Below, one piece after another: positions 21,670-55,912 of a stretch of DNA of 62,954 nt. The notes under the pieces are model-generated. The model saw only the letters and a program-made list of their open reading frames with translations, was not told the origin of the DNA and made no database searches. The DNA comes from a virus (Duplodnaviria > Caudoviricetes). The translations under genes and the position numbers were made by a program. The first letter of the stretch is position 1, and every line of letters starts with the position of its first letter. Location of the stretch: positions 1-62,954 of IMG/VR virus record IMGVR_UViG_3300035703_000093; one strand, 5' to 3'.

Positions 21670-22017
21670 ATGAAAGACGGGATCGAGAAAATCGTCGGGG
21701 CAGTGGTTGCCATTCTGGGCGTCGCGCTTGGAGTGTTTGTGACCTTTGTGGTGTATTTACAGGCGGCCAGCGTGATGGCTGGATTTGCCGCGGCTTGCGG
21801 CATCATTTTGCTGCTGACGGTGGCGTTCTGGCCCTTGTATTTGCTGCTGGGAGTCCTGCTGAAATGTTGGGACAACCGGGAGCCTGTTGTCGAAATGCTG
21901 AGGCATTGGGCCTGGGTGGTGCAGCGGGCGCTTTTGTGGGCGCTGGGATTGTTTTTCGCCGTTCTCGTGACGTATGCCATTCTCATGGCTGTCTTTGGCT
22001 GGATTGATGGGCGGTGA
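21670..22017 (+). CDS. Membrane protein with about 3 TM helices
   Basis: Strongly hydrophobic ORF upstream of the repressor. Confidence 0.6.
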   Translation: MKDGIEKIVGAVVAILGVALGVFVTFVVYLQAASVMAGFAAACGIILLLTVAFWPLYLLLGVLLKCWDNREPVVEMLRHWAWVVQRALLWALGLFFAVLVTYAILMAVFGWIDGR

Positions 22018-22120
22018 TTTGCTGGTATGTGCATATCGTGCTGCTCTGTGTTTTTCGCACAGGCGGCTCGGGTTGGCAACTTTTATTTGCATATTCTGCG
22101 ATTTTGTGCATTTTGCACCC

Positions 22121-22738
22121 ATGACAATCGACGCAACTTCATTGAAGAGCTGGCGCGAAAGCCGAAAGCTTTCCCAGCTCGATCTTGGTGGAATGCTTGG
22201 CGTTTCACACTCGGCGGTGAACCGCTGGGAGAACGGGCAGGAGATCCCCGGACCGGTGCAGATGCTCCTGCGTCTGCTCATCCACGGCGAGATGCCGTTT
22301 GGCGGCGGGCAGGAGGACACGGTGAAGGAGGAGGCGAAGCACTTCTGGTCGCTCAAGCTGACGCTGGGGGACTGGCACAAGCTGGAAGGGTTGGCGTCCT
22401 CGGCGGGCTTTCCCACGGTGCGGGACTACCTGCTGCATCTTATCCGTGAGCATTTGGAGGAGGAAACCTCCAAAACTTTGTTTATCAGCAATAATCAAGA
22501 TGCCGATACCGTTGGAAATGAGTGCTGCCCGCCCTCGTCAAGTGTCTCGACTGCAACTTCCTGCGAAACCGGCCCCACAGCGCGATCACCCCTGGCCTCG
22601 GCTGCGCCCATTGTCCCGCTACCGACAGCGCACTGGTCCGGGACCGGCGGCGGCGCACCCGCCGCAGGCGCGGGCGGCGAAATGGCGCGGCAGGATGTGG
22701 TGTATGAGAAGCCGAGGAGGCGGCGGAAAGCGGAGTGA
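22121..22738 (+). CDS. XRE-family HTH repressor (CI-like)
   Basis: LKSWRESRKLSQLDLGGMLGVSHSAVNRWENG. Divergent from the early operon. No peptidase domain seen. Confidence 0.82.
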   Translation: MTIDATSLKSWRESRKLSQLDLGGMLGVSHSAVNRWENGQEIPGPVQMLLRLLIHGEMPFGGGQEDTVKEEAKHFWSLKLTLGDWHKLEGLASSAGFPTVRDYLLHLIREHLEEETSKTLFISNNQDADTVGNECCPPSSSVSTATSCETGPTARSPLASAAPIVPLPTAHWSGTGGGAPAAGAGGEMARQDVVYEKPRRRRKAE

Positions 22739-23013
22739 AACCTTACGCCAGACAATGCGGCGGATCTCCGCCTGAACTATCCACGCAGTCCCATGCAGGC
22801 CGTCACAGTTTGGGAATGCAAGGGCGATCACCGAACGGACGCTTCATCGCCGACAAAACTCAATACTGCGAGTCCAGGCCTGGGGCGAAAGAGAAAATAC
22901 GCAACGCCAAACGCGCCTTGAAAAAACGTGCCAGACAACAACTCAAGCGCGAAATGCTGAGTGAGAACAATCAAACTGTGCCGACCGCTGGGGCGCTCGG
23001 TGCATCCGACTAA
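22735..23013 (+). CDS. Small basic protein (distal cassette-like gene, stop codon inside attC1)
   Basis: GTGA overlap with the repressor; NAKRALKKRARQQLK. Confidence 0.6.
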   Translation: MKPYARQCGGSPPELSTQSHAGRHSLGMQGRSPNGRFIADKTQYCESRPGAKEKIRNAKRALKKRARQQLKREMLSENNQTVPTAGALGASD

Positions 23014-23062
23014 ACCCAAAAGCCCAACCGCCCCAGCGGTTGGCACCAGTGCCGGGTTTAGC
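22962..23062 (-). other. attC site 1 (101 bp)
   Basis: Minus strand: GCTAAAC-CCGGC-ACTGGTGC-...stem...-GCACAGT-TTGATT-GTTCTCA, i.e. R'', 5 nt, 8-nt L'', 7-nt L', 6 nt, R'. Confidence 0.85.
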
Positions 23063-23073: not shown

Positions 23074-23391
23074 ATGGACCCACTAATCACAAAAATCGAA
23101 GACCTCACAGAGTTTGCCGGACTGGAGCCAGAAACGATCACGCTGCTAAAGATGGCCGCCGAAGCTCAAAGGACGGGGAAAATGCCGCCGCTACCGATCA
23201 CGACTGCACCGGAACCAACAGTGGGATGGGTAAAATCACCGCGCCGAAACGATTTGGCTGAACGACCAAGCTCACGGCACTGCCGGGGGCGGAAACCAAC
23301 CTCAAACACACTGACTCTATGGCTAAGAAAAAAGCATCCAAAACACCCAGCGCCCCGGCAGTTGACCGTGCAGTGCCTGGTTCGCGCTTGA
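23074..23391 (+). CDS. Cassette E hypothetical protein (reads through attC2)
   Basis: ATG 12 nt after attC1; the C-terminal part is encoded by attC2. Confidence 0.5.
   Translation: MDPLITKIEDLTEFAGLEPETITLLKMAAEAQRTGKMPPLPITTAPEPTVGWVKSPRRNDLAERPSSRHCRGRKPTSNTLTLWLRKKHPKHPAPRQLTVQCLVRA
23257..23386 (-). other. attC site 2 (130 bp)
   Basis: Minus strand: CGCGAAC-CAGGC-ACTGCACG-...CTGCCGGGG/CCCCGGCAG...-CGTGAGC-TTGGTC-GTTCAGC. Confidence 0.88.
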
Positions 23392-23567
23392 TGCGAGTGT
23401 CTGACTTTGAGAACGCTTGCTCCGCTGATCTGAACTGCGACCTGTGGGATGGCTCGCTAAATGCACAGTATGGAGGTAAGATCACGCTGGCTGTGTCGGA
23501 GATGCGATACATCGCAAACGCCTTGCGCTTCATGCAGGGTAGAAGGCAACGCACATGCCTAGACTGA
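23319..23567 (+). CDS. Cassette D hypothetical protein (start inside attC2)
   Basis: MAKKKASK...; AVDRAVPGSR is encoded by the attC arm. Confidence 0.6.
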   Translation: MAKKKASKTPSAPAVDRAVPGSRLMRVSDFENACSADLNCDLWDGSLNAQYGGKITLAVSEMRYIANALRFMQGRRQRTCLD

Positions 23568-23568
23568 G

Positions 23569-23662
23569 CGCGAACGCGGAGGTAAACCAGCCATGAGCGC
23601 CTTTGATATTGACCCTGTGACAGCCCTGCCGCGAATGGCTTGGCTTCACCGTTTTGTTCAGG
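23569..23662 (-). other. attC site 3 (94 bp)
   Basis: Minus strand: CCTGAAC-AAAAC-GGTGAAGC-...AGCCAT/ATGGCT...-GTTTACC-TCCGC-GTTCGCG. Confidence 0.8.
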
Positions 23663-23895
23663 CTTTTCGGGCGTGGAGGCGTGGACGGCTGGAGAGACGA
23701 GCAGTTGCCATCGGAGCCAGATTGGAGCGCATCGAAATAGCTCGCGAGGTGATGAAGATATTTGGAGAAGATGCACTCAAGATCGGCTCGGGCTTTATTG
23801 TCGAGATCATCATGGATAGAATGGAGGCCGAGCGTTCCGAACATGGCCGCCTCAGTAACGAACTCGCACAGATCGAGAAAAGCCTGAACCGATAA
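23593..23895 (+). CDS. Cassette C hypothetical helical protein (start in attC3, stop in attC4)
   Basis: 100-aa ORF filling the cassette. Confidence 0.65.
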   Translation: MSAFDIDPVTALPRMAWLHRFVQAFRAWRRGRLERRAVAIGARLERIEIAREVMKIFGEDALKIGSGFIVEIIMDRMEAERSEHGRLSNELAQIEKSLNR

Positions 23896-24020
23896 AACGC
23901 AGCAACCCCATAGGGCATAAACACGATGGACTCTCCACTACCAACACCCGCCGCCGAAGCGGCAGACTCTCAACCTCCGACAGACGGCCCTATGGGGGTG
24001 GCTGCCGTGCCGTGTTCTGC
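23883..24020 (-). other. attC site 4 (138 bp)
   Basis: Minus strand: GCAGAAC-ACGGC-ACGGCAGC-...CCCCATAGGGC/GCCCTATGGGG...-GCTGCGT-TTTATCG-GTTCAGG. Confidence 0.85.
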
Positions 24021-24207
24021 GTTGGACGCGCTCGACTACGCAATTTACACCTGCAACAATAGGGCGGGAAGCCTGCGTCACGTTGCTTACAACGCAGCGT
24101 GTCACGACATCATTTGTTTTCTTGAGGCGGCAAAGGGTCGCCTCTTGGATGGCGGAGAATTATACGATTATGCGGTTACGCAGAACGACAAGGCTGAGGC
24201 ACCGTAG
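23926..24207 (+). CDS. Cassette B hypothetical protein (start in attC4, stop in attC5)
   Basis: 93-aa ORF filling the cassette. Confidence 0.62.
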   Translation: MDSPLPTPAAEAADSQPPTDGPMGVAAVPCSALDALDYAIYTCNNRAGSLRHVAYNAACHDIICFLEAAKGRLLDGGELYDYAVTQNDKAEAP

Positions 24208-24231
24208 GTTGCCTCCAGCCGCTAGTTCTCA
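24180..24231 (-). other. attC site 5 (52 bp)
   Basis: Minus strand: TGAGAAC-TAGCG-GCTGGAGG-CAACCTACGGTG-CCTCAGC-CTTGTC-GTTCTGC. Confidence 0.85.
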
Positions 24232-24273
24232 TTCCGTGGTCTATGTCGCCGAAAAATAATTTCACTTTGGCCG

Positions 24274-24302: not shown

Positions 24303-24367
24303 GGTCGTGTTCTCAATCGAGGACACCGCGCCGGGCGGTTCCCGGCCACTGCTCAAAGCACACTGAC

Positions 24368-25087
24368 ATGAAACACACCATCGAAATCCGCAACGGCTCC
24401 GGCTGGAACAACTATGCTGGCCTCAAAGACCTCAAATCCCTGCCCGCAGGCACCAAGGGGTTGATGAAGAAAAACGGCGTCGCTGAAATCCACATCGGCC
24501 CCGCCGATGATGAAAAACCATTCGGAGTCGCCGCTCGCTATTACGACGCAGACGGCGAAATGATCTGGGAGCAATCGTTTGGCGAAGACAGTTCAGCAAG
24601 CTGGATCAGGAGCCGAGTGACCGCGCTGCTTGAAGAAACAATCAGCGTCCGCCGTGAAAAAGTCCGCGCTGAACGTGCGGCGGAGGCACTCAAGAAAGCC
24701 AACGCAGCAGGCTTCGCGACCGCAAAAGAACACAGCGATCATCTCGCTGCGATGGCGGCCGAGTCGAAAGCAAAAGCAGCAGCAGAACGTGATGCCCGTT
24801 GGGCATGGCTCAAGGGCGAAAATGGCGGACAAGAAGCCGCCGCTGCGGCTCTTGAGAAAATGCGTGAACTGCGCAAAGCCTGCCCGCAAGCCGACGGCAT
24901 GACTCGCGGCGGCAAGCTCGGTAAGCTCATCAATCCTGCCTCCCCATCGGGAGGGTGGGCCGAAGTGTTCGAGGCTTTCGTGATCGACAACGAAACCCGC
25001 AGCAATGGAATGCTCGCATGGCTGCTGCAAAACGGCCACCGCGCCGGTCTCGATGACCGTCATTTCTTCTTCGTCGCAGCCGCATGA
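24368..25087 (+). CDS. Cassette A hypothetical protein
   Basis: 239-aa ORF with A/C-rich codon usage distinct from the phage backbone. Confidence 0.75.
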   Translation: MKHTIEIRNGSGWNNYAGLKDLKSLPAGTKGLMKKNGVAEIHIGPADDEKPFGVAARYYDADGEMIWEQSFGEDSSASWIRSRVTALLEETISVRREKVRAERAAEALKKANAAGFATAKEHSDHLAAMAAESKAKAAAERDARWAWLKGENGGQEAAAAALEKMRELRKACPQADGMTRGGKLGKLINPASPSGGWAEVFEAFVIDNETRSNGMLAWLLQNGHRAGLDDRHFFFVAAA

Positions 25088-25263
25088 AACGTGAATCTCT
25101 CGAACTCCAAGAATCAGACTGGCAGCGGCTCACGGAAGTGGCCGCTGCCACGTCGTCAATTTACTCCGACCGGCCATCATGGCGCAGGCTCATCCTGCGC
25201 ATCGCTCGCGGCGAAGTCCGCTGCTCGGAAGCGCCGAAGGCCAAGAAGCGCCCGAAGGAATGA
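25084..25263 (+). CDS. Cassette A small RHH-like protein (59 aa; not in ORF track)
   Basis: ATGA overlap; MKRESLELQESDWQRLTEVAAATSSIYSDRPSWRRLILRIARGEVRC...; its stop TGA is the first 3 nt of the att box. Confidence 0.65.
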   Translation: MKRESLELQESDWQRLTEVAAATSSIYSDRPSWRRLILRIARGEVRCSEAPKAKKRPKE

Positions 25264-25290
25264 GAACACTGATTCTCAAACAAAAGTCGC
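25261..25290 (-). other. Putative attI
   Basis: Minus strand TTGAGAA-TCAGT-GTTCTCA, with no attC hairpin, 36 nt from the intI start. Its R box is complementary to R'' of attC5. Confidence 0.7.
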
Positions 25291-25302
25291 CGATTAACCC
25301 CG

Positions 25303-25599
25303 ATGAAAACGCGCTCTCCATCCGCTCGTGCTACATTGCAAAAATGCGTCGATCTCCTTCGCAGGAAGCATTACGCGCTCACCACGGAACAGAGTTACTG
25401 TCAGCACATTGGTTCGTATATTGACTGGCTGCGTGATGTGCAGGAACTGCTGGGCCACGCCATCCTGAACACGACGATGATCTACGTCCATGGCGACGGC
25501 GAACGGGTGAGGAGTCCGCTGTCTGCGATGCCGCTGCCTGCCAACGTGGTGCCGTTTGAGTCGCAACAGTCGCAACAAAACCTGGGGAGGGTTGCGTGA
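25303..25599 (+). pseudogene. intI: Internally deleted integron integrase (98-aa open frame)
   Basis: IntI N-terminal motif LRRKHYALTTEQSY joined in frame to the C-terminal RDVQELLGH...TTMIY.H....VRSPL. The central catalytic domain is missing. Confidence 0.88.
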
Positions 25600-25645
25600 T
25601 GGAAACGCCAGTTCTCAGTTCTCAGTTTCCTGCTAACGAATCATC

Positions 25646-26071
25646 ATGAAAGCCCGAGCCGCCATTTGGAAAACACTGGTCGATGAATGCCTGGACAAGG
25701 GGATGTCCCTGCGGGCGACGGCGGCGTTTCTGGCGCTGCCGGTGGGGACGGTGAAGACCTGGAGGCATCGGCAGAGGAAGCAGGCGGACAAGAGTGTCCG
25801 CGTTTCCATGAAACCAGCGATGAAACCGGCTCCTGCGAAGGAGAGGGCCACGGCCATGAAACCAGGCATGAAACCGGGGGTGCATCGCGGGCTGACGGTG
25901 GAGATGATGCCGGGGCGGACGGGGTGGGAGCGGCGGATGACGTGGAGCCTGTTTAGGCGCGGGGAGTGGCCGCCGAAGGAGTGGCGCATTCCGGCGGATT
26001 TGGAAGGCCCGGCGCTGGCGTCGGCGCTGGGGGAGAGGGCGTTCAAGAGCAAACCGAGGGGGGAGGCGTGA
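25646..26071 (+). CDS. HTH protein with MKP repeats
   Basis: GMSLRATAAFLALPVGTVKTWRHR; ATGAAACC repeated 4 times. Confidence 0.6.
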   Translation: MKARAAIWKTLVDECLDKGMSLRATAAFLALPVGTVKTWRHRQRKQADKSVRVSMKPAMKPAPAKERATAMKPGMKPGVHRGLTVEMMPGRTGWERRMTWSLFRRGEWPPKEWRIPADLEGPALASALGERAFKSKPRGEA

Positions 26072-29148: not shown

Positions 29149-32100
29149 TCACAGGCTGGCAGCCTGTCTCACGAGGAGAGGGGCGCGTTGTTTGATGCGC
29201 TGGAACTCCTGAAGGGCGTTTTCGAAGGCGGCGCGGGCCTCGCCGGTGAGGGAGGCGCGGAACATGGATTGAGCGTCTTGAGCTGAAATGCCTTTGCGCT
29301 TGATTCCACCGACTACCATCAAAGGATTGCGGTAGAAGAGGAGCTTGTTGATGTCCTGCTCGGTGCGGACGGGGTGGCCCATTTTTTCGAGTGATCCAAG
29401 GATGTTTTTGATCGCTTTAAGGTTTGGTTCGTCCTGCGCGAGCTGGGCAAAGAGGGCCTTGCGGGCGCGGGAGGCGGGCGTTGTTGAGCCGTAGTCCATG
29501 CCTTCCTGCACTTCTCCTCCTTGGGCGATGATCCAATCGTGGGCTTTGCGGTAGAGGTCCGGGGTGGCGTTCTTGACGTTGAGGCCGACGACGGCGCGGG
29601 TGAAGGCCTGGGCGGGGTCGTAGGTTTCGAGGGTCTTGTTCGTGGCGCGGTCGCCGGCACGCATGAGGGTGTTGAAGGCGGTGCCACCGGGGGCGAGGGG
29701 TGGCAGGGCGACGCCGGCGGCGTGCTTGGTGTAGGCTTTGATCTTCTCGAGCGGCGTCATGCCGAACTCGGCGATGGGGCGGCGGGTGAAGGCGTCCTCG
29801 TTGTGCCTCCAGGCATCGACCAGGGAGAGCACGGGGCCGCCGGAGACGATGCCGCGCCAGAAGCGGTTCCACGGGTCCTCGGTGGCATCGGTGACGGCGA
29901 CGCGGGTGCCGAGGAGATCGGCGAAGGGCATGATGGCGGAGATGTCGAACTGCTGGACGGCCCCTTGGGCGCTGCGGAAGGGCAGCAGCATGGAGAACAG
30001 CGGGGTGTCAAAGGCGAAGAGCTTCCCCTTCCCTGCCATGTCTTTCTGGATTTCCTCCATGTCGTCGTCATCGAGGCCGAGCAGCATGGCGGAGATCGCG
30101 GTCACGATGGCCGGGAAGCTGAGGGCTGCGGTGAGGGCGAGCGGGCGCTCGGCGACGGCGGTGCCGAGGATGCGGGTGGACTCGCGGAAGAAGGAGAAGA
30201 ACGGGTTCACGAAGCGGCCGACGGCGCGGGTGGTGCCGGACTGGCCGAGGCGGTCGTAGTAGGGGAACCATTTCCGCACATGTTCCGCTGCGCGGGTTCT
30301 CTGTTCGCTGTTCTCGGTTCCCTGTTCAGCGAGTTCGGCCTTAGCTTTGAAGTAGGCGGCGGCTTTGAAGAGGTCGTCGGGGAGGCGGCGGAGGCTGGCG
30401 AGGAACTCGTGGGAGCCGTGGAGGGTGGCACCAAAGCCGAAGAGCATGCGCTGGACGAGGCCGGGGTCGTAGTCCTCGATGGTCTTGGGGTCGGGCAGGA
30501 GGCCTTTCAGGCGCTCCTTCACGAGGCCGGTGTAGGCGTCGCCACCGATGACCTGCTGTTCGATGAGTTCGGCGAAGTCTTTGCCCCCGGTGCGGAGGGC
30601 GGCGATGGCCTGCTGGTAGTAGGGCCAGTTGCCGGGGTTCCAGAGGCTGTTGCCGGCGAGGGTGGCGAACATGGTGTTGCCGACGGCGTCGCGGATGTGG
30701 GAGCCGGGGTTCCAGACGAGTTTCCCAGCCTTCCACTTGCGCAGGATGGCGTCGTAGAACTGGAGCGCGGCGTTTGGCACATCGACGAGGTCGAGGATCT
30801 GCGCGGCGATGTCCTTGCGGACGTGCTTGCCGGCGAGAGGGCCGAAGCGGGAGGCGTCGGGAATGGCGGTGAAGCCGTTGAGGGCGATGTCGCTCACCCA
30901 TTCGGGGTGCTGGGCGGTTTTGCGCAGCAGCTCCATGGTGGCGGCGTTGTGGGTCTGGCCGAGGACGTAGCGGGCAACGGCATAGACGGGGTCCTTCACG
31001 AGTTTGGCGGGCTCGAAGGGGTCCTTCGGCAGGAAGCGGTCGTATTGGTGCTTCTTGGCCTGCTTCACGATGCCGGCGAGCATGGGGGAGAGCTTCGCGG
31101 TGTTGGCGATCTGGTCCACGGTGAGGGACTTGATCTGGTCGCGCATCGAGGCGCGTTCGGAGCGCGAGAGCGGGGCGAGCATGTCGGCCACGGTCTTGTC
31201 GCCACGGTCCTGGAGCATGTTCAGCGTCTGCTGGCGCACGAAGTCGTGGTAGAAGGCGTCGCGGGAGGCGGCGTCGCGGAAGCGCCAGCGGTTGCGTTTG
31301 CCGCCCTCGTCGCGGGAGACAGTCACATACTGGCCGGTCTTGTCCTTCCGGGTGGTATCGACGATGTGGTAGGCGGTGGAGCGCTGCTGGAGGAGATCGC
31401 GCACGCCGAGCTTGAACGCGGCGAGGAAGGAGCCGGCGGACTCGCGGGCCTCGTCCTCGGTGTAACGGGGCATCCAGCCGTTCGACTGGAGTTCCTCGAA
31501 GGTGTCCGGGTTCATGAGGCCCTGGCGCACGAGTTCGGAGCCGGTCTGGCGGAGGAGATCGCGCAGGCGCTCCCCGAGGCGCTGCATTTCCGGCGGCAGT
31601 GTGGCCATGGGGACGCGGCCCTCCATGGCATCGAAGAGCTGGGCGCGGGCGGCGGGGTTCTCGGCGAACTCCTTCGGGTAGGCGAGATCGGAGAGGCGGG
31701 GATTGCCGGAGAGGGCGCGGATGAGGTCGTTCGCCGTCTCCTGGCCGTGGGCGGATTTGCGCTGCATCTCGTGGTGCAGGGCGAGCCATTCACGGGGCAG
31801 GAGGGCGGTGGGGAGGACTTGATCGACGAGGCCTTTGATGGACGGGGCGAGGCCGTCCGGCTTGTCGAGCCAGGTTTCGACGGCAGCTTTGGCGCTGCGG
31901 AGCTTGGGGCCGGCGAGCTTGTCGAGCTGGGCGGCGAGGCGTTTGTCGAGGTTGTTCGAGCCGAAGGTGGCGAGGGGTTGCTGGATGCCGAGGGCGTCGG
32001 CAAGGTAGCCGTTCACGCGCAAGGGCACGAGAGGTGCCTGGACGAGGCCTTTGATGACCTTTGAGGCCAGTGCGCCCGTGAGATCGACGGCTTTGCCGGC

Positions 32101-35100
32101 GAGGTCGAGGGACTGGGCGGCACCGGGGACGGTGAGGAGTTTGCGGTCGAGGGCGACGGCTGTTTCGGCGATTTCGCGAGCGTTGGGAGTGGCGGCTCCG
32201 ATGGCGGTGCCGATTGTGCCGCCGATGGCTGCACCGGGGGCTCCTGCGACCAAAGCGCCTGCGCCTGCGCCGATGCCGCCCCCGATGAGGGCACCGCTGG
32301 TGGTGTTTTTGAGGCGGTTGGAGGCGTAGAGAACGCCTGTCAGTCCGTCGGGCAGGCCTTCTCGGCTTCCAATCTGAGAAAGTAAACCCTCAGATTCGCC
32401 TCTTTGAAATGTTTCAAGCGCGGATGCCGTGACGATTGCTCTTTGAAGCGTTGCCAGTCCAATTCCAGATGTGTCGGGATGGGCGTCAAGGACCGCACGC
32501 TCGATTTGCTGCTGCCCCACGGGCTGTCCGGTGCTGTCGATGAACTCGTCACGAGTGAAATCGTAGCGCCAGTTCCGGGCTTCCGCAACCGCCTTGAAAG
32601 CGTTGTCCATCTCCTTGGTCAAAAGCGCGGCGGTGTTGATGGCGGCATTTTTCCCCCACGGCACCTTCTGGCGGTCGTGAGGTTTGAGGTGCTTGGTGGT
32701 GCCGTGGCGCAACGCACTGCTGGCAAAATTCGACGTGCGGCGGATGGCGTTGATGCTGGTAAGCCCGCCCGGATCGTCTTTGATGCGTTTGCCGTTGTTG
32801 TGAATCCAATCCAGCGCTGCCTGGTAAATTTGCGCTCCTCCCCCGCCTTTTTTGCCTTTGGATTCGGCCGCAGTGCTGCGGATGTAGGGGCGGTCAGTGT
32901 CGGCATCATGGATGTCCAAGTAGCCGTTTTTGCCGTGAAAACGCACGGTGTCACCCTGACTCGCGGCCGTGACGAGCTTGCCTGGAATCGACACCGCCTC
33001 AGCGATTTTGCTGGCGCTGGCGTTGCTGGTGCGTCCGTATTGGAATGCCTCATCATGGGCCGCCAGAGCACGCCAGACCTTGGCGACAAACGTGCGGGCC
33101 GGAGCGCGGGCTTCTTCGTCACGCTGATCCAGAATGTCCTGCCACCAAGACGCCGTGCCCATCGGCTGGGCGGGCGTGTTGGGTGGGAACCACTGCGGCA
33201 GCCAGCGGCGGTTGAGTGCGTCCATGTCCTCCTGCTGCTGGCTGGCCTCTTGCTGGAGAAATTCCAGCGCCAGTCGGGATGACTGCTTTTCCATGCGCTC
33301 CTGAACCACCTCGGAAGAATAGATGTCAACATCCGCCCCCAATTTGATCAGCTTGAGGCGTTTTTCCAAGTGTTCACCCCAGCCATTGATCTCGTTGGGT
33401 GTTACGAAAGACAGTAGCTCTAGCGCCCTGTTGAGATACTTTTGGAACTGCTCATCAAGCAGTGTTTGCGGGTAGATGTTTGAGGCGGCTCCTTGGTCAA
33501 TGAGGGCGGCACGGGCGGCTTTTCTTGAATCTAAAACTTCAGCGGCTTTGTTAGCCGTTGGGTGGATGCCATATGAAAGAAGCGACTCATTCGCCAGCCG
33601 CTTCAACTGGTTGTTTTTGTCGATCTTGCTGCGGATTTCCTGAAGTGCTGGCGTTCCGTTGAGGAACCATTGTTGATCCTGCGGTAAATCGTCATGCGTG
33701 CCGCCGTTCCTCTGGAGTTTTTCCAAAAATGTCCGCATGGCAGGCAGCGCCTCCTGCTGGAGCTTGGCACGGCGCTGTTTTTCAGCATCTTGTTCAGCTT
33801 GGAGACTGGCTTGTTTCGCCTGAGCGTCGGACAATGCCGACTCGTTTTTCTTGATGCGCGTCTCGATCTGCCAGCGGGCCGCTTGGCCGGTGTCTCCCAC
33901 GGTTTCACCGCCGCCGTCATACCTGGACCCCAGCACGGGCACGGTGCGGTTTTCGGTGGCAGAACCGATCTGGAAACCCACGATCTCCACCTTGTCACCT
34001 GCGGCTTTTCGCAGATCCTTGATCATGTCCGCCATGTAGCCGGAGCGCGTGTCCGGGCCGTCGCTGAAGTCGATGCCTGGCAGGTTTTCCACCGCCAAAC
34101 CCGTCGCCACATGGCCGGGCTGCTGCGGCTGGGCCAGGAACCGCAGGAGTCCAAGTTCCTCATAGTCGTCATTTTGCGGCGGGCGTGGTGGCAGAGCGCG
34201 GGCGCGGCGACTCCAGAAGTTCAGCAGAGCGGTGCGGGGGTTGGTGTAATTGCTGCTGGTTTGCCGCTCTCCAGCGGAGTTCTCGACCCGAAACTCACCG
34301 CGCTCTGTGCGGCCCATTTTGAAACCTTCGGGTAGATCTGGAAGTTTTTGGTAGGTTACAACAAATTCAGCCGCATTCATCTTGATCCGGTCACCGGCCT
34401 TATTGACCACAATGACCGCATTGATAGGCTCGTTGTGGTTGAGGTAATAGCCGGTGCGACTATGGGGTAGCGAGCGAGTGAGAGCCGCCTTATCGGCAGC
34501 AATGGACTCAATCAGTCCTGACACCTTGCGCTGAACAGAACTGATTTCATCCCGCTGGCTCTGGGATGTGAAGGGGTTTGTCATTGACCACCAATCGGCA
34601 ATTTTGGCAGCCGCGTCAGAATCCAATTGCGGAAGCGCTTCAGTTGGTTTATTATTCCCCGTCGCAGCGACAACATCCTCTGCCAGGGAGGATTCTCCGC
34701 TCCCCTCAATCTGGTTTGGGGAGCGGCCCCGTTGAAGCAATGACATGGGCTGGTTCGCCAACTCACTCTGCGACATCTCCCCGCCCTGGGAAACTGGGGC
34801 GGGGTTTTTTGTGCGTCCGGCGCTGGCAAGCAAAACCGGCTTGTCGTGGGGGCTGGTGGGTTGGGGCAGCGTCTTGGCGAGTTTTTCGATCTGCTCCTTG
34901 GTGACGGGCTGGGTGGTGTCGTGGGTGGTGAGCCAGTGTTTGAAGACGGGGATCGTGGTGGGGATGGCGCTTTGCAGGCCTTTCCAGCCTTTGGTGTAGC
35001 TGGCCATGTAGCCGCGGGCGGCTTCGGCGGGGGTGTTGAAGCCGAGCATGACCTTGTGCTCGTCGAAGTGGCCGTTGCCGGGTTTGCGCTGGTTCACGAT

Positions 35101-38100
35101 CAGCACAAGCTGGGAGTCGGGGTTCGGGCCGAGGAAGAAGTCGAGGTGGCCTTTGTCGCGGCCCACGGTGCCGAGGATGCGGCCGTAGTGATGCGGCAGG
35201 GTGACGGACCAGGGCTTGCCGGTGGCGTCGGTGCCGCTGCGGGTGCTGCCGGCGGGGTTTTCGATGCTGAGGCGCAGGCCGTGGACGTCCACCTTGCCGG
35301 TTTTGTAGTTCTCGGCGTCCTTCTGGGGCTGGGTGGGGTTGGTGTTTGTCGCTGCTGCCGCAGCGGCCACTTGCGTGGCGAGATCGGAGCGGACAGGAGT
35401 GTCCGCGCCCCCTTGGCGGTCGGAGGCGGCGAGAGGGGAGCGCTCGGTGGCGAGGCGTTCAAAGGTGGCGCGGAGGGCTCCGGTGGGGTGGAGGATGATG
35501 TTGTCGAAGACGCGGAGGAATGTGCCGTTGTCCTGGGTGATGGCGTTTTCGGTGTGGAGGTCGAGGACGGCGAGGTTGTCTGCCGGGCGGTAGTAGGCGG
35601 AGGGGGGATCAAGTTGGATGAAGCCTGCGGCTTCCATGGCGGGCTTGATGGCGGTTTCCTGCGCGGCGTATGCGCCCTGGTAGTGCGGCTGGGAGGTGAT
35701 GAGGGCGACGTTGCCGACGCGATCCGCCCAGACGGCGTGGAGGACGATGTCGTCGTGGAAGATGCTGTTGTGGAGCAGCAGCTTTTCGAGGTAGGAGGCG
35801 GCGTCCGCGCCTTCGCGGGCGATGTCCCATTCATCACGGTAGTCGCGGGGCTGGTAGCCGTAGGAGGTGCCGTCTCCACGGGTGATTTTCACCCAGCGGC
35901 CTTCCTGGTCGCGGAAAACGTGGTGTTCAGAGCCGCCTTTGTCGAGGGGACCGTCGAGGTCGTAGCGGGAGGGTGGGTCTGTGATGAGGATGCCGGCGGC
36001 GCGTGCCCAGTCGGTCAGGAGGGCTTTGTCGCGGCGGCGGTCTGCTGCTCTTCGAGCTGCCGCATCCGGCGCAGATGATCCGCCTGTGCGTTGGCTTCGG
36101 CGGAGGTGTGAGAGGAGAGCCGGGAGTTGAGCGCGGCTGCTTCCTGCCTGGTCGGCAGGCGGGGTTTCGGCGATGGGGCGGCGTTTTCCATGGAGGTAGG
36201 CATCTATCGCATGAATGCGGGTTTCTTCCAGTGCTTTAGCTTCGGGCGTGGAGAAAGGTGGCTCGGTGATGCGGGCGCTGGAGGCGAGGGGGACCATCAT
36301 ATCGGTGGACATGATGCCGGAGGCGTTGCGGAGTTTGAAGGGGCCGGCGGCGGCGACGGTGGCGGCGGACTCGGGCGGGGAGAGGAGGACGGCGCCGGTG
36401 TCGTCGCCTTCCTTCACGCCGCGCATGAAGGCGGCGGGGGTGACGGCGGGGTTTTGGGCGTGGAACTGGTTCCACACGGCGCGGATGGGGAGCCACTGCG
36501 AGGACTGGCCGCGCAAGGCGGACTGGTAGGCGCGGGAGATGAGGACCGGGGTGACGGGAATGAGGGCGGTGAGGCCCTGGCCGGTTTGCGGTTCGCGGTT
36601 CGCGGTTCTCTGTTCGCGGTTGCGGAAGAACGCGGCGCTGGAGCCGAGGGTGGTGGGCGTGAGAGCGCGGTCGAGCGGGAAGCGCTGGGAGGCGAAGAGG
36701 GCCTGGCCGGCGAGGGCGGAGTCGCGCATCTGGTGGGTGATGCGGATGAGGTGGATGGGGGTTTCGGAAGCAGGGAGACTTGAAGACGGGGAGACAGGCG
36801 GAGTGGTGGGGTTGTCGAGTTCTTCCTGGAGGCGAATCTGAGCGCGTTGTTGAGACGGGTATTGACCGAAGACGCCGTTGGGGAATTCAATGCCCCACGT
36901 TCCGGGCTGCATTTGGACAACGCCAATTGGGGGGCCTTGGGGCTGGGAGTCGGAGGTGGCACGCTGTTTTGCGGTGATGCTGCTGCTTTCCACGGTGCCG
37001 CCCCAGGGTTTGACGTATTTGGCGAACTCTTTGACGAGGATGTCGTCGTAGAATTTGCGCATGCCCTGGCCGCCGACGCGGAGGTCGAGGCCGGTGTAGT
37101 TTACGACGCGAGAGGGTGAGGCGAATCGGAGGTCGCTGACGATGCGTTCGGCGAGTTCTTTGCCAACGATTTCCGGCAGTTCCTCGGCGGTGAAGGCTTC
37201 CTTGGGCAGCCGCACTTCGTGGTCGTTTTTATCGAGGACGGCGATCTCGTAGCGTGTCTGGTCGAACTTCTTGGCGTCGATGCGTTTGACCTGCTTGCTG
37301 AGGTCGTAGCGGTCGGCCTGGGTGTCGCCGGTGGTCCAGCCGATCCACTGCTTGCCGGACTGGACGGCATCGAGCAGGGCGCGTTTGAAGAGCATCAGGG
37401 GCCAGGAGGCGCGGTAGGGGGCGTCGGGGACTTTGGCTGCTTCTTCGGGCGATGCGGGCACGGTGCCGCCAAACACACCGGGGACCGTCTGCATGGTGTC
37501 CCGGTAACCCTTGTCCCGGCCCATCTGGTGCCATTTGGACTGGAATTCTTCGACGAGGAGGCCGTTGCCGGCGGCATTGGTGCGGTCGGTGGTGCGATAC
37601 CAGGCGAGTGCGTCGAGATCGCCGTAGTGGGTGCGGTCGGTGTCGAGGTTGGGGGAGTTGGTTCTCGGTTCGCTGTTCTCGGTTCGCGGTTGGTTCCAGG
37701 TGATGACGACTTCCTGGGGATTGGTACCGCCGGGGAGGGTCAACTGGGTGTTGCGGGTGGTGGACTGCATGCCGCCGGGGTTCACGCGGTTGTAGCCGTC
37801 GTTCATGTCGGCAACGGTTTCCTGGGCGGAGGCTTCGGTGGGCTCCCAAATGACGAATTCGCCGGCGGGATTGATGACGTCGAAGCCTTGGCCGTTGCGC
37901 TCCGGGCGCAGGGTGGGGCGATAGGTGAAGCGGTCGCTCAGGTTGCCGAAGCGGGTGACGGTGAACTTCACGCTGCCTTCGGTGGCGAGGTAGGCGAGGA
38001 CCTGGTCCTGGGTGATGGGGCCGTCCTGGGCCTGGGACTGGAGCCACTGGCGGATGCCGGTCCATTTCATCTCCTCTTCTTTGAGTCCGGCGTTTTTGAG

Positions 38101-41100
38101 GATGCCGAGGATATGCTCGGGGGTGGCGCGGGCGGGCATCTTGGCGCGGACGGCTTCCGCAAGGGCGGAGTAGAAGCCGGGCTCGACGTATTCGACGCGG
38201 CGGTTGGAGGCGCTTAGGCTGACGTCATTGACGTCGTTGTCCTCATTGACGGATGGGGAGCTGAAGCGGTCGGCGTCTTCTTGGAGCTGGGCTTCGAGGT
38301 CGGCGAGATCGATCTCGGGGGAGGTTTCGAGCGGGTCGTCGCCGGGGCGGCGGTCGGCGTCGAGTTCGGCGGCGACGCGGGCGCTGGTTACGCGGTCCCA
38401 GCCGGGGCCGCCGGCGAGGGTGGCGTCGAGGGCGGGGGTGTATAGGCCGGATTGAGGATCACGCTTTCCAGTTTGGCGCGGTTCTCCGGCAGGTAGTCCG
38501 CGTTGATTTTGCGCAGCTCCTCCAGACTGAGTTTGGAGAGGTCCGTCACTGTCTCCGAGGGGGATGCCGCCGGGGCCGTAGGTGCGGACGGGGGCGGAGG
38601 GGAGACGGAGGTCTGCGACGGCGGCGGGAGAGAGGGCAATGAATTCATGGCTCGGTTTCTTGGGACTACCACGGAAGGTTCGGAGGACGGTCCAACCAGC
38701 CTTTTCAAGCTGATCGACGACGCGACCGTTGAAATTGTTGGTCACCACATACCGCACATCGCTCCCCTTGGGAAGCAGATACTTTTCGAACTTCTGGAAC
38801 CAGAGGGCGGGGTTGGCATCGCCGAGGGTGGTGTTGCCGTAGTTCATGACGGCCGCGCCGGCGGCGGTCTGCTCGTCGGTGGGGAAGTAGGAGGTATCGA
38901 CGAAGACGAGGGCACCGGCGGGGGCATCGGCGGCGAGCTGCCAGCCGTCGCCCTGGCGGATGGTGGCCTCGGTGAAGCGGCGGGAGGCGTCGCGAATGAG
39001 AGCTGGCATGTCCGCACTCCAGACGCGGGAGGGGCGGTTGTGCTTCATCGAGTTCGAGGGGTTGTCCCAGTAGATGAAGGCGAAGTCGTCCTTGCCGTTG
39101 AGTTTGCCGCCGGTGAACGTGCGCGGTTTGCCCTCGGCATCGAGGTCGAAATCCACGACGCGGTTTTCCGCCATGTTGTTCTGGAGGAAGAGGTAGAGGG
39201 CTGCGGTGCGCGGGGTGTCGGGCAGCGGGAAGCGGCCCATGGCGTCACGGGCCTGCGTGGGGAGGTAGTCCTCCAGCGTCTGGTTGATCCAGGCGTGGAT
39301 ATTCCGGCGCTTCTCCATGGTGGCCTCGTAGGTGGGCTGGATATCGGTGATGGGGAAGGCGGTGTCGAAGGCAGAGCGCAGGCTGATGAGTTCGCGCACG
39401 ACGGCGGCGGGGGCGTCCTTGATCTGGCGGTTGGTGATGCTGCGGGAGTATTCCCATTCGTTCCAGGTGGAGCCGGCGGGGAGGTTGCCCTGCTGGGCGA
39501 GGAAGTGGGTGTAGATGGCGGCTCCGCCGAAGGCATCGAGCACGACGGTGGCGGGCTCGACGAGGGAGAGGTAGAAGGTGCCGTGGCGGCCGAGGAGGTC
39601 GCCTTTGTTGCCGCTGATGAGGTAGGGGGCGATGGCTTTGATGGCGTTCGCCGTCATCGGTGAGCCTTCGGGGACGGGGAGGGTTTCGAGGCGGTAGTCG
39701 TCGAAGGAGGTGCCCCAGAAGTCGGCCTGTTTGTTCTCGGTTCCTGGTTCGCTGTTCTCGGTTGAAACAGGGCGGACAGGAGTGTCCGCGCTCCCTTGAG
39801 GAACAGCGACGGGGAAGCTCATGTCATCTTCGTCGAGGGCGGCTTGGCGGCGGGCGATGTCCGGGGGCATCTCACCGAAGCGGCGTTCGATATGGGGCGC
39901 GTAGGGGCGGAGGGCCTGCTGGGCGGCCTCGGGGGTGATCTCGGGGAGGTCACGCTCGGCCATGACGGTGTTCCAGGCGCTGCGGAGGTGCGGGTGCTTG
40001 AGCGCGTGGAAGGCGTCGGCGGGGAGGCGTTTGACGAGGTGGGCGAGGAGCTGCGGGAAGGCGGTGATGCCGTGGCGCTCGACCGCGCCATCGACGAGGC
40101 GGGAGGCGGCGTCACGGAGGCGGGGGGAGGCGGCGAGCAATCCTGCCTCCTGGAGGGCGGCGATGACTTCGGCGTCGTCAGCGGCGTCCAAGGCATCGCG
40201 GGCAGGATTGCCCGCGCTATTGTTGAGGCGCAGGTGGTTGGGGCCGGCGGTGAGGTTGAGGGTCTGGCCGGGCTGGGGGGTGACGGAGCCGAAGCGGTCG
40301 CTGTCGAGGGTGAGGGGGTCGGTGTCCTGGACGGTGAACCATTCGGAGCCGATCTGGATCTCGTCCTCGGGCTCGAGTTCGCGGGCGAGTTCCTCGGTGG
40401 TGAAGGGCTGGCCAGTGGCTCCGGCGGCGTAGGCGGCGAAGTCCTGGGCGCTGGCGAGGGCTTCTGCGGCATCGCGGGCTTCGATGTCCTGCACGCTGTC
40501 TGTGTTCTTGGCGGCCATGCGGGCATCGAGGGCATCGAGGATGGCAAGGCCGAGTTCCTGGCCGGAAGAAACGGACCACGGGCGGGCGATGCGGGTGTCC
40601 TGCTCGGTGGTTTGCTCGGTGTCAGAAAGCTGACCGGCGGCTTCGTCGATGCTGGATGGCTCGGAAAGGTTAACGATGCCTTCCTGAAGCAGCCAGGCGC
40701 GTTTGCGGGCGGGGTCGCTCACATCCCCCTTCCGTGCAGCGGTCTGCGCTTCACGTTTGCTTTGAGTTGGGCCGTTTTCGGCGTCGCGGGTGAGGTCGCG
40801 CCACCAGTCCCAGTTGGAGCTTTCATTTGGGCCGCCGATGCCGCCAAAGCGCTCCTTGAGTTCGGAGATGATGTCTCCTCCCACGGGTGGTGGCAGGGCT
40901 TTGGATTTCGACTCCGGCATTTTGGCCCAGGAGCGAAAACTGACGGGGCGGAAGATGGAGAATGACGAGGCTTTGGGCGCTTCCTCGACAAGGTGGTCAT
41001 GGTAGGCTTTGAGCTTTTCCTCGATTTCGGCGGAGGTGAGCGTGGTGTGCTCCATGAGCCTGGCGATGAGCGCGAGTCCACGCTGCTGCGCTTTTTGCTT

Positions 41101-44100
41101 CTCCGCCTTGGTCGCAGTGTCGGACTCCATGATTTTCGCATCGAGCTTGAACTGGAAGGCGGCGAGGGAGTCGGCGTCGGGGAAGGAGGCTTCCCGGCTG
41201 GTGCCTTTCTTGGCGAGGGGGATTTTGAAATCGAGTTTTACCTTTTGCGGAGGTGTGTCCCGAGTTTGCACCACGGGCATTCCGTCGGATCGCATTCCTT
41301 GCGGCCATGCAGCCACATTGTCAGTTCCCGTGGGCACTCCGGCGGGGTTTCCGCCTGCATTCTCTGGCGAAAGGCCCGAGCCTGTTGCAGCGTCTGCTGA
41401 ACCGATACCGGGCAGTCCGGCTTGAGAGGCGGGCGCTGGTAAAGCGGTGCTGGCAGATGCGCTATCACGGTTTGAACTCTTAGTAGCAGGCCGGCCGATG
41501 CGCAAGATTTCTTCTGTTCCGGCGTTATTGGTAGAGGGGCTGGTGTTTCCTCCACCAAGAATGGGTTGTTCTCCTCCAGCCATTTTTCGTGAGTCATTTC
41601 GTGAGTCATTGTTTTTATTGGGTAGATTATTTTGGGAAACTGGGGATTCGGCTACGGCAGGCGCAGGCGTGGTGGTGGCGGGCTGGGGGCGGCGGCTGAT
41701 GCGCAGGAGGCGCTCGGCTTCGCTGTGGGGGATGGTTGCGGCGACGTGGGGGTAGGTGAGGGCGAGGTCGTCAAGGGCCTGCTGGCGGATGACGACGCGG
41801 TCGTTGCGCACGTAGGCGGCTCCGGCGGGATCTTCGGCGGTCTGCCATTTGGCGGGCTGGGACTGGACGTAGGCGAGGTCGTCGAGCGCGAGCTGGTGCT
41901 CCAGGCTGCCGGCGAGGGTGAACTCGACGGCGAGGAGGGCGGACTTGAGGCGGGAGAGGGTGTAGATGCGGGCTCCGCCTTCGTCGATGGCGGACTGATC
42001 CACGCCGAGGCCGAGGGCGGCGAGCATGCGCTGCTCGCTGATGCCGATGGTGCGCCAGTCGGCGGCACGGCGGCGCTGGCCGATCTTGCCGGTGCCGAGG
42101 AGCATGAGGAGGGCGGCCTTGGTGGCGTCCTGGCGTCCGGCCTGGCGGGCGAGTTCGAGTTCGCGGGCGGCGTTGTCCTCCAGGAAGAAGCGGGCGCGGT
42201 TCTGGGCCACGACCACGGCGCGGGCGGCGGCGGCACGCTCCTGCTCCTCCAGGCGGTATTTGGCGGTGACGAGGTTGTCGAGCTTGTTGGCCTTGGCGAA
42301 GTCCTCGATCTCGGCGTCGCGGGCGGCGAGCGCTTCCTCAACCTGGGCCATGCGGGCGGTGCGCTGCCGGGCCTGTTGCACCATGGCCTCGACGGCGGCC
42401 TCGTTGATGAAGGCGGGCTTGATCTGGCCGGGGCGCGGGGCCTCGGTGATCTGCAACTTTGGCAGGGTGACGGGCGGCCTATCTTTGACAAGCTCGGAAG
42501 GTAGAGAAGCAAACGCGGCGAGGCGTTTGTTGGTGTTCTCGGTTCGCTGTTCGCTGTTCGCGGTTGTCGGAGGCAGGGACTGGACGAAGCGGGCTCCGGC
42601 GAGGTCGGCGGCGGCTTTAAGCAGGCCGACGTGGAGGGTGGCGAGGGCGGTTTTGGCGGCGTCCGGCTGGGCGGAGAGCAGGCGCTGGAGGTCGGTGCGC
42701 TGGTCCGGGGCCGTGCGGGAGACGAGGCTGGAGACGAGGCGGGTGAGGAGGTTCGCTGTTCGCTGTTGGCTGTTCGCGGTTGGGGCGCGGGGGGCGGAAG
42801 GAAGCGGGCCGCCGGAGGCACGCGAGGGGTTAAAAGAGTTGACTTCGGGCGGAGTGGCTTCACCCTTCGTCGGCGATTGCTGCTGTGCATCTTCAATGGT
42901 GCCAACCGGACCCCTGCCTAGCACGTCCGATTGATTCCGAGCTTCATCTATATCCGGGTTCCCGGTGCGAATAGCACGAGCAGCAATCGCCTTTTCTGTT
43001 TTTGGATCGTTTTCGGCAAGCCACTCAACAGCCTCTATCAGTCCAATAGTGATTTGCACAAAATCTAAGGCGTCATCAACCATCACATAGTGGTCAACTG
43101 GCCTCAGAACTTTTGCGTGATCTCGAACGGAAACTTCCAAATTGCCGCCACGACCAAGGATATACCAAGAACCATGAAATGTTGCTCCAGAATTGCGGTA
43201 GCCAAAAGACAACAGCTTGTCAGATAATTCTCTTTTTAACCTGAATCCAAGCTGGCGAATTTCTTCATCTACCTCGGCTTCTGTCAGGCCAAAACCTGAC
43301 TCAACGGCATCTTTGCGATACTCTCGGCGAATTTCTGCCGACTCATTTTCAAATTCGCTGCGAAAATCATCAATGGCATCAAGGGCTTGCTTGCTTGCCT
43401 CCGCCTCAGTCAGACCGCCCGGCGAAGGCTCATTGTTTTGGGCGGCCCCGGAGTCGGATGCCATGGGGGAATCTGCGCGGTCGGCGCTGCCAAGCAAGGT
43501 GTTTTGGACTTGCCGGCGGGTGAGGTCGCTGGCGGCCATGTCGGCGAGGAGGTGACGCATCAGGGCGTCCTTGGGGGCTTTGTTCCCGGTTCGCTGTTCT
43601 CGGTTCGCGGTTCGCGGTTGGGCGGAGCGCCAGCTTTGGAAGGCGAGGGACTGGAGGGCGGGGGTGAGCAGGTCGAAGAGGCGGGCGAGTGGCTCAGGGG
43701 CGAGGGCGGGGTCGGTCTTGGCGAGGTGCTCGAAGAGCACGCCGGTGCGCATGGCCTGGACGGCGATGGAGCCGGGATCGCGCAGGATGACGGGACGGGC
43801 GGCGGCGTCGGGGTTGGCTGCGGCGGCTGAATCCACCTGCGCGAGGTGGGCGTCGATGGCCTGGGCCATCTGGTCGAGCTGCTGCTTGAACTCGGGCTGC
43901 ATGCGGCCGGCGATCTGGCGCACGAGATCGGCGAGGGCGGCGAGCATGTCCCGCAGCCAGCCGATGAGGCCGGCGGGTGGGTCCACGGCCTCGGTGACGG
44001 CTCCCTGGCGGAAGACGCTCTGGAAATACATGCGCTCATACTCGCGCATGAGGTGGTAGGCCTGGGCGTCAGAGAGCGCGGTCTTCGGCAGGGTGGCGTC

Positions 44101-55569: not shown

Positions 55570-55912
55570 GCTGGTGATAAGTCCGCCGCCTGGCTGTTTG
55601 AAAGCGTGGCAACGCGCCGCCGATGCGGCGGCGTTGCCGGTGGACAAGTGGGCTATCAAAGCCTGCAACACTGCCGCCGGTCACAGGCCCAGTAACACGG
55701 GGTTTCTCGGAGTCTCTGACTCCGCACCGAAGCGAATGGCCTTCCGTGTGAATTGGTCGGAAGGCGGTGTGAAGAAATCGACCACGATGGCCTACACGCC
55801 CGCCACGCGTGAGGAGCGGTTAAAAGAAGCCTTCGAGTTCCTCGAAGCCCGCGAACGTGGCGAGCCTCGGCCCCCAACGCGTCGAGGACGGAAGCCTTTG
55901 GAGAACAAATAG
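55562..55912 (+). CDS. RHH-like + AP2-like DNA-binding protein, stop inside attC6
   Basis: WQRAADAAALPVDKWAIKAC; NTGFLGVS...FRVNW; ends ENK* on GAGAACAAATAG. Confidence 0.6.
   Translation: MSKLVISPPPGCLKAWQRAADAAALPVDKWAIKACNTAAGHRPSNTGFLGVSDSAPKRMAFRVNWSEGGVKKSTTMAYTPATREERLKEAFEFLEARERGEPRPPTRRGRKPLENK

Follow-up and report, generated by a model that had tools for sequence, protein, structure and literature searches.

Delta-intI, an internally deleted integron-integrase gene, was found in the window, by which is meant the whole 62,954-bp stretch of DNA analysed here, the entire IMG/VR virus record IMGVR_UViG_3300035703_000093 (CheckV, 100% complete). The gene joins the 43 codons at the start of an IntI-type tyrosine recombinase to its last 55. 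On its 5' side lies what is, judged from the sequence, a phage-borne integron, in which an attI-like site is followed by five cassettes flanked by attC-like sites in canonical geometry. Delta-intI is a catalytically dead remnant of the integrase of this integron, and its open frame has probably been kept for the expression of the genes downstream. The coordinates of the features are collected in Table 1.

Identity of Delta-intI and mapping of the deletion

The frame opens with an ATG at 25303 and closes with a TGA at 25597-25599, and its translation includes ...LRRKHYALTTEQSY...IDWL followed directly by RDVQELLGH...TTMIYVHGDGERVRSPL.... In Pfam searches, residues 12-44 were matched to positions 2-34 of 85 of PF13495, the SAM-like N-terminal integrase domain (18.8 bits, cut-off 27), and residues 43-65 to positions 147-169 of 172 of the catalytic domain PF00589 (18.7 bits, cut-off 27.1), so that residue 43 is the point at which the two ends of an integrase meet. 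An earlier note on this DNA had described an open frame of 98 amino acids (aa) with an IntI N-terminal motif joined to box II, and the coordinates of the open reading frame (ORF), its translation and the Pfam layout bear this out. Among the NCBIfam models, TIGR02249 (integron integrase) ranked top for the remnant with an E-value of 3.7e-9 (36.4 bits, model positions 279-315 of 315), compared to 4.6e-6 for the XerC model. The XerC and XerD models gave 26.2 and 22.2 bits against curated cut-offs of about 330-335, and the 36.4 bits of the remnant are below the TIGR02249 family cut-off of 265.

When the DNA of the window was compared with that of five intact genes (L013, L014, L016, L009 and L005, of which L013 is the closest), one gap of 744-753 nt was found in each comparison and the sequences were otherwise colinear. 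Relative to L013, the gap amounts to 744 nt, or 248 codons, with a left edge of ...GACTGGC followed by TG and a right edge of ...GGCAACG followed by TG; the junction was mapped between 25429 and 25430, and the 2-nt TG is the only microhomology. The alignment to the five intact genes looks like a single event, in agreement with the one-step deletion that had been proposed. The block missing from the window corresponds to residues 59-305 of the intact relative P0009 (358 aa) and holds R159, the beta-hairpin K184 and H289-R292 (HxxR) in P0009 numbering, together with the IntI-specific segment. The residue alignment to P0009 upholds the earlier claim that the central R, K and HxxR residues and the IntI insertion are absent. 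The only catalytic residues left in the remnant are the His of LLGH and the Tyr of MIY; the tail also stays, and the N-terminal domain keeps 43 of its roughly 100 residues. These findings show that the remnant cannot be a recombinase.

The stretch GGTTCGTATATTGACTGGCTG (21 nt, window 25409-25431), which is AT-rich relative to the genome, was compared in L005, L009 and L013-L017. It was identical, third codon positions included, in five of the seven diverged sequences; L005 has one synonymous T and L017 an extra G. The frameshift of L017 and the left deletion edge of the window both lie at the 3' end of GGTTCGTATATTGACTGGCTG.

Occurrence of the deletion in other assemblies

Contigs of two samples of one study, and of a second study, were found to carry the identical junction. 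In X1, the probable source run, a 5080-nt contig with a depth of 201 covers the region with no differences to the window. In X2, a second sample of the same study, a 159-nt contig (25333-25491) bridges the junction, again with no differences, and in X4, groundwater from the other study, a 357-nt contig (25307-25621) bridges it with 4 differences in 315 nt. Parts of the window that have no cover in X2-X4 are uninformative either way. A full-length allele of the window lineage was not seen in any contig, contigs being known to drop rare variants, and no joint or alternative form was reported among them. The window is a metagenome-assembled record, but no positive evidence was found that the deletion arose in assembly, and given the independent X1 assembly and the two bridging contigs an artefact is almost certainly not the explanation.

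Intact relatives are integron integrases

The intact relatives of Delta-intI are 313-366 aa long. Of the 29 matches that a search for longer relatives gave in the protein collection, one is a deletion allele of 176 aa, one is frameshifted and one is only distantly related. Four of five intact relatives scored above the TIGR02249 cut-off of 265 bits (275.7, 270.1, 277.0 and 275.2) and P0009 scored below it (259.3), whereas the XerC and XerD models gave 107-128 bits, so that the IntI models beat the Xer models by about 150 bits. The best solved structure for an intact relative was VchIntIA (2a3v, E 3.5e-42), compared to 2e-24 for a XerC-like structure, and the alignment to VchIntIA is ungapped at query residues 233-271, through the IntI-specific segment. 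XerC and XerD have the same tyrosine-recombinase fold and the same box II motif (LLGH...TT..Y.H), but their models score far below the IntI models for both the remnant and the intact relatives. The IntI insertion is missing from Xer proteins, whose site of action is dif and not a cassette array. The NCBIfam scores and the best structure support the earlier assignment to IntI rather than to the XerC/D type. The intact relatives therefore resemble known integron integrases, and the window gene differs from these in that, having lost the central block, it cannot be an enzyme.

The 43-aa N-terminus alone was too short as a query; an N-terminal alignment retrieved two viral and five true metagenome loci, L018 and L019 being spurious. 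No relatives were retrieved via the upstream 239-aa gene, and no second intI was found in the window. Among 185,579 species genomes (one genome per species) no close relative of the IntI clade was found; the best matches were 41% identical, in a Rhodoferax metagenome-assembled genome (MAG), and then 38-39% in Verrucomicrobiota MAGs. The terminase of the window matched only 2 of 401 Verrucomicrobiota genomes, with 33-34% identity.

A distant 324-aa IntI was also observed on a viral contig (L010, 1998-2972; 398 bits on TIGR02249). A large terminase gene (3706..5661) follows about 0.7 kb downstream, beyond an uncharacterised stretch, and two weak attC-model matches lie upstream of the IntI gene.

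An attI-like site and a cassette array lie upstream of Delta-intI

Candidate attC sites were searched for with a covariance model, R1, which was built from five near-identical copies of the hairpin H1 and run without filters, and the E-values of which are rough. The H1 copies are nearly unchanged and come from the window, from upstream of the intact L009 gene (two copies) and from two other viral contigs (one copy each). At E<0.01, with the mirror image of H1 excluded, three sites were found in the window, all of them on the + strand and two of them just upstream of the remnant. In ten related loci, 10 non-mirror matches were found at the same threshold, six in L009, which has an intact intI, and one each in L007, L015, L010 and L004; all ten lie on the intI strand, 5' of the intI gene or remnant. 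A further + strand match in the window was found at 25108-25161 (10.7 bits).

The R1 matches keep a 5' AAC(G/A) box, a 3' GTT and a complementary but changing stem with a one-base bulge at GGTTG. Across an alignment of 18 sites, the C of the 5' AAC and both T of the 3' GTT (T96 and T97) do not vary, and the G of the GTT (G95) is conserved to at least 90%. In the alignment A8, which was fitted to the structure model and in which 4 of the 17 rows are mirror-strand reads of the same sites, inflating the compensatory counts, 95.6% of the cells pair and 19 of 20 stem pairs are changed on both sides, which none of 500 shuffles reached; the covariation score was 0.60, compared to 0.15 for shuffled alignments and 0.04-0.09 for slid partners.

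In an integron cassette, the first bases are complementary to the inverse core of the cassette's own attC. The 3' flank of each site was compared with the reverse complement of the 5' flank of the next site, with 500 random-flank controls. Complementarity was found in four of the five neighbouring pairs of the window, every match begins at GTT, and random flanks reached the scores in 0-1.2% of 500 trials. Between H4 and attI the match is GTTCTCATTCC (11/11), where 24225-24235 is the exact inverse of 25257-25267; the window holds only two exact copies of this motif, inverted, at both ends of cassette 1. The flanks match at GTTCTGCGT between H2 and H4 (9/9), at CGTTTT[ATCG]GTTCAGGCTTTTC between H6 and H2 (19 nt with one 4-nt gap, reached by none of 500 random controls) and at GTTCGCGCT between H3 and H6 (9/9). 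In L009, three 9/9 pairs came from the automatic comparison (GTTAGGTGC, GTTATGCTT and GTTGGGCCT), and a fourth (GTTCAGCCT, sites 1870/2836) was read by eye, with the weak site 2640 skipped.

The cassettes measure 1082, 288, 323, 312 and 295 nt between AAC boxes. Cassette 1 has no hairpin on the intI side and the array ends with H1, so that in its canonical reading the array runs along the minus strand and away from intI, like that of a textbook integron. All six ORFs between H1 and attI are on the + strand, co-directional with intI and antisense to the canonical cassette direction; three of them start inside hairpin loops and three stop in or next to an AAC box. In L009, all eight ORFs called up to the last attC-like site (3195-3284) are likewise on the + strand, and a weak minus call (3621..3833) lies beyond that site, before intI.

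The attI side has a sharp boundary. In eight homologous loci the similarity begins at GAACACTGATTC, 38-44 nt before the ATG, and the DNA to the left of it is unrelated. This was also the case for L015 and L016, which encode identical proteins, and for L014 and L017, which are near-identical up to the L017 frameshift. The X3 sequence shares cassette 1 up to 25270 and then continues into other DNA, so that cassette 1 is also found in a second context. In X4, a 176-nt contig matches the window sequence only from 25264, and no link of this contig to the deleted allele is established (depth 6.8 vs 3.4). The array may be frozen or may be moved in trans, the two possibilities that the earlier note had raised.

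These findings argue that the window holds a phage-borne integron, in which the strength of the sites is uneven, H1 and H4 being clear and H3, H6 and H2 weaker. H2, which has no + strand match with R1, rests on its fold and its complementarity. The cassette array that the earlier note had placed next to the gene is borne out by the R1 matches, the complementarity and the ORF layout. An opposite reading, that there is no array, had been drawn from a strict scan with no matches, from inverted repeats at background level (29 pairs in 63 kb) and from H1 copies not tied to an IntI in L020 and L021, and was dropped when it was overturned by the unfiltered R1 search.

Several side observations concern the sites themselves. 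The right arm of H1 (window 22978-23046) can itself be read on the minus strand as a small hairpin with a T-run behind it and is terminator-like; similar stretches are found in L009 (1604-1665 and 3212-3273) and near position 2000 in L020 and L021. About 90 nt of H1 recur near-identically in phage contigs that otherwise have nothing in common with the window. The solo attC-like site occupies the exact spot at which the 85%-identical L006-L008 have an attC-like site and a C-terminal IntI remnant of their own (in L007, 4076-4167 and 5001-5135). The shared position suggests that the integron, or a second one, is placed differently in close relatives.

The open frame and the genes downstream

In the window, Delta-intI is followed by a chain of overlapping ORFs (Table 1), and two tandem exact copies of the attI core GTTCTCA were found at 25611-25624. 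The overlap of the intI stop with the start of the next gene recurs in related loci. In L013, the stop of the intact intI overlaps (GTGA) the start of a homologue of the window's 25646 ORF; in L009 and L005, it overlaps the start of a methyltransferase gene by ATGA; and in L004, a remnant with a newly gained start overlaps a DnaG-type primase gene by ATGA. Taken together, a stop-start overlap was found in five of eight distinct contexts.

A total of 23 short proteins had at least 62% weighted identity to P0009. Thirteen of these, the window allele and 12 others from metagenomes, are in-frame fusions of an N-terminal and a C-terminal part with 13 different junctions (the window, P0002, P0003, P0004, P0006, P0007, P0011, P0038, P0042, P0043, P0048, P0105 and P0126); for P0006 and P0126 the C-terminal match, of 11 and 8 residues, was read by eye. 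Three are N-terminal fragments, two with foreign tails (P0040 and P0071) and one perhaps cut by the contig end (P0037), and seven are C-terminal fragments. Frameshifted alleles were found in P0035 and L017, the extra G of L017 (GACTGG^GCTG) lying at the spot of the window's left junction. All that the in-frame alleles have in common is about 27 N-terminal and about 8-12 C-terminal residues. With 13 of 15 in frame, P is 3e-5 at an expectation of one third; with the window left out, 12 of 14 are in frame, and P is 0.0004 to 0.023 at the k-mer rates given below. The excess of in-frame alleles is suggestive but not proven.

The best explanation for the open frame is what the genes downstream of Delta-intI require, and the frame would have been kept because the intI stop commonly overlaps the start of the next gene. 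A single 744-nt in-frame deletion appears to have joined codon 43 to the start of box II, with loss of most of the N-terminal DNA-binding domain. The cassette ORFs, Delta-intI and the following genes may be read as one rightward unit, in which only deletions that keep the start, the frame and the native stop would preserve downstream expression, and the 98-codon frame would then act as a translated spacer and not as a protein. The C-terminal ...AA was also considered as an ssrA-like degradation tag; this was dropped, the GCN-GCA-TGA ending being equally explained by the overlapping start.

Alternative explanations

Delta-intI could also be a dead remnant whose open frame means nothing, the deletion having fallen in frame by chance or through a microhomology bias and being too young to have gathered stop codons. 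Several results point that way and weigh against a role of the frame in downstream expression. Shared k-mers in the five intact genes are in phase in 38% (k=2) to 57% (k=8) of cases, and when four Met-initiated C-terminal fragments are counted as out-of-frame the ratio falls to 12 of 18 (P = 0.014 to 0.27). In three of the eight contexts there are gaps of 8-45 nt instead of an overlap, and the coupling in the window runs via the extra 16-codon ORF. The two copies of the allele differ at only the 4 of 315 nt seen in X4. For the retained 98 codons, the ratio of nonsynonymous to synonymous substitution rates (dN/dS) was 0.17-0.34 when the window was compared with intact relatives, which does not differ from the 0.12-0.35 of intact pairs and indicates that most of the divergence predates the deletion; with dS at 0.65-1.1, the comparison is uninformative. 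In contrast, there are 13 different in-frame junctions and just 2 clear cases of an N-terminal fragment with a foreign tail, and the microhomology in the window is 2 nt only, for which the in-phase expectation is 38%. Moreover, alleles that keep only the last 8-16 residues (P0126, P0105 and P0006) still rejoin the native frame, and the C-terminal-only remnants of L004 have a new ORF and still overlap the primase-like gene by ATGA. A meaningless frame is judged unlikely. A working 98-aa product, as the earlier note had suggested, would bind att sites through its N-terminal helix, or poison or modulate an intact IntI of the host or of a co-infecting phage through its C-terminal segment. In tyrosine recombinases, the C-terminal segment packs against the neighbouring subunit, and the frame, the start, the catalytic Tyr, box II and the family-specific tail N..PF are all intact. 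The same allele persists in two studies, in-frame alleles recur, and each of the 22 aligned sequences, those of the deletion alleles among them, keeps N344 and F348 of the tail. However, the placeable differences between X4 and the window (three of four: I54S, M76V and Q89H) are all non-synonymous, the alleles keep different pieces of the protein with no common core beyond its two extremes, the N-terminal domain is less than half retained and both Pfam domains are below cut-off. A working mini-protein is accordingly not supported and appears very unlikely, the stop-start overlap being the simpler account of the frame.

Compared to these, a remnant of a Xer-like or ordinary phage recombinase, with hairpins that are terminators or other phage signals and no integron at all, is held to be highly improbable. 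It would fit the scores of the intact relatives, which only just reach the TIGR02249 cut-off or, for P0009, fall below it (259 vs 265 bits), the terminator-like part of H1, and a number of observations that tell against an integron here, besides the rough E-values of R1 and the mirror rows of A8. A strict RYYYAAC/GTTRRRY scan, which had no positive control, found no site in the window, and the window cores GTTCTCA, GTTCTGC, GTTCGCG and GTTTTAT are unlike textbook 7-mers. A scan for AAC-hairpin-GTT units was unspecific, with 12 hits on the + strand and 14 on the - strand across the window; H6 and H3 are weak with R1 and H2 has no + strand match; the complementarity between H1 and H3 is not significant; and no sigma-70-like promoter was found in 22700-26300. 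G006 and G007, both incomplete records, have an H1 copy but no IntI. The cores of L009 (GTTAGGT, GTTGGGC, GTTATGC and GTTCAGC) are nonetheless near canonical. Terminators would not show GTT-anchored, cassette-specific complementarity eight times (seven by automatic comparison and one by eye), nor would they share one strand and one side of intI in ten of ten cases or have compensatory stems, and the advantage of the IntI models, with VchIntIA as best structure and the IntI-specific segment present, speaks for an integron integrase. The evidence as a whole thus favours the dead remnant of an integron integrase with a frame kept for the genes downstream.

The phage genome

The window is a temperate phage with a separate, intact classic integrase (Table 1). 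PHROG and Pfam scans also identified genes for a DNA methyltransferase, a DHH phosphoesterase, a single-stranded DNA-binding protein, a replication initiator and an anti-repressor, and tail lysozyme, portal, terminase and capsid genes; the remnant belongs to a run of small unknown ORFs. In each of the five related viral records a classic integrase accompanies the IntI-type gene, which is intact only in the L009 record, and the IntI-type gene is for this reason regarded as an accessory second recombinase. As context, lysogeny of the phage does not depend on intI, given its own classic integrase. Two AAC-hairpin-GTT units at 6418-6641 (+ strand) adjoin the 5' end of the classic integrase gene and could be the attP region.

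The window also contains 23 tandem arrays with a 7-nt unit, a density of 3.7 per 10 kb. Most units read GTTCNNN or GAATGNN, and in one array there are 17 copies. Examples are found at 19893-20014, 15092-15136, 13797-13828, 25609-25627, 26078-26102, 36582-36625 and 43582-43619. Many are in short intergenic gaps and several inside the giant ORF, and the cassette-1 junction motif GTTCTCATTCC is the overlap of the two unit classes. Relatives have 0-1 of these arrays per 10 kb, and those with an intact intI do not share the arrays of the window.

Table 1. Coordinates of Delta-intI, the integron and other features of the window
Feature	Position	Strand	Remarks
Delta-intI	25303..25599	+	98-codon in-frame remnant of an integron-integrase gene; codons 1-43 N-terminus, codons 44-98 box II, Tyr and tail
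Deletion junction	25428..25431 (25429/25430)	+	TG at 25430-25431 is the sole microhomology; 744 nt gone relative to L013
attI-like region	25261..25302	+	palindrome TGAGAA-CACTGA-TTCTCA at 25261-25278; core GAACACT at 25264-25270, GTTCTCA on minus
H4, attC-like, cassette 1	24184..24231	-	AAC at 24184, short bulged hairpin, GTT at 24225; R1 25.8 bits (24184-24226), E about 5e-5 for the whole window
H2, attC-like, cassette 2	23896..24020	-	fold z -3.6
H6, attC-like, cassette 3	23573..23662	-	R1 9.3 bits (match 23573-23657)
H3, attC-like, cassette 4	23261..23386	-	R1 14.6 bits (match 23269-23376)
H1, last attC-like site of the array	22966..23062	-	R1 100 bits; strongest hairpin of the window
Cassette ORFs	23074..23391, 23319..23567, 23593..23895, 23926..24207, 24368..25087, 25084..25263	+	no Pfam or PHROG match
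Downstream chain	25599..26071	+	TGATG overlap to a 16-codon ORF (25599..25649); ATGA overlap to a 141-aa helix-turn-helix-like ORF (25646..26071)
Solo attC-like site	55904..55953	+	R1 19.5 bits (55904-55949); between portal and terminase genes
Classic phage integrase, intact	5284..6483	-	phrog_1, 9.5e-40
Helix-turn-helix repressor-like gene	21974..22738		from PHROG/Pfam scans
Giant ORF	29149..49038	-	6629 codons, a third of the phage genome
tRNA-Pro	55223-55296		

Relation to known integrons and significance

The system resembles the known integron platform in that the array is 5' of intI, the attI-like boundary is sharp, the hairpins carry AAC and GTT, and the cassettes show complementarity. 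It differs in that the cores are GTTCNNN and not GTTRRRY, the ORFs are on the opposite strand and directed towards intI, no Pc-like promoter was found, and the host phage has a classic integrase.

According to Starikova et al. 2012 (PMC3510236), active IntI1 is costly in bacteria and was quickly lost by frameshifts in experiments, inactivation restores fitness, and non-functional intI is frequent in surveys. Loss of the phage IntI was probably favoured or tolerated for the same reason, the cost of an active IntI. The present case is similar to the inactivated bacterial intI described there in that a costly integrase is lost and the cassettes stay; in contrast, the lesions there are frameshift or nonsense, and those found here are mostly in-frame deletions (13 alleles) with 2 frameshifts.

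Integron parts are known from phages but are rare there. In 10,705 genomes, Qi et al. 2023 (PMC9892861) found an integron or In0 in four temperate phages, together with 17 clusters of attC sites lacking integron integrases. The complete integrons and the In0 are in phages or prophages of the Vibrio, Escherichia coli P1-like and Shewanella kinds; for Vibrio they are described as pieces of the host chromosomal integron acquired on excision, and for the P1-like phage as a class 1 integron mosaic. Both that survey and the present work find integron parts in phages, there in temperate and virulent ones and including a truncated intI1 in a P1-like phage; the difference is that the intI described here belongs to a phage clade, with a best species-genome match of 41% identity. 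In the main text of Qi et al. 2023, the words 'opposite', 'antisense' and 'reverse' do not occur. A literature search found no papers on phage integrons besides Qi et al. 2023.

A broader scenario is that a freshwater and groundwater phage clade (roughly 57-65 kb) carries its own integron lineage with backward cassettes read as part of an operon, that its intI has been repeatedly knocked out in frame, that cassettes are exchanged in trans by the IntI of co-infecting relatives, and that the 7-nt arrays are footprints or secondary targets of IntI at GTT cores. Taken as a whole, this scenario seems decidedly unlikely.

A broken integrase alone is ordinary, but its context is less so. A phage-specific integron lineage is documented by the intact member L009, by the sites with covariation and by the classic cassette signature; its cassettes are read towards the integrase, as part of what would be a phage operon; and at least 13 independent in-frame knock-outs of one recombinase form a natural series. 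With this series it becomes testable whether integrase loss is selected in phages as it is in bacteria, and whether the frame is kept for downstream expression or for protein function.

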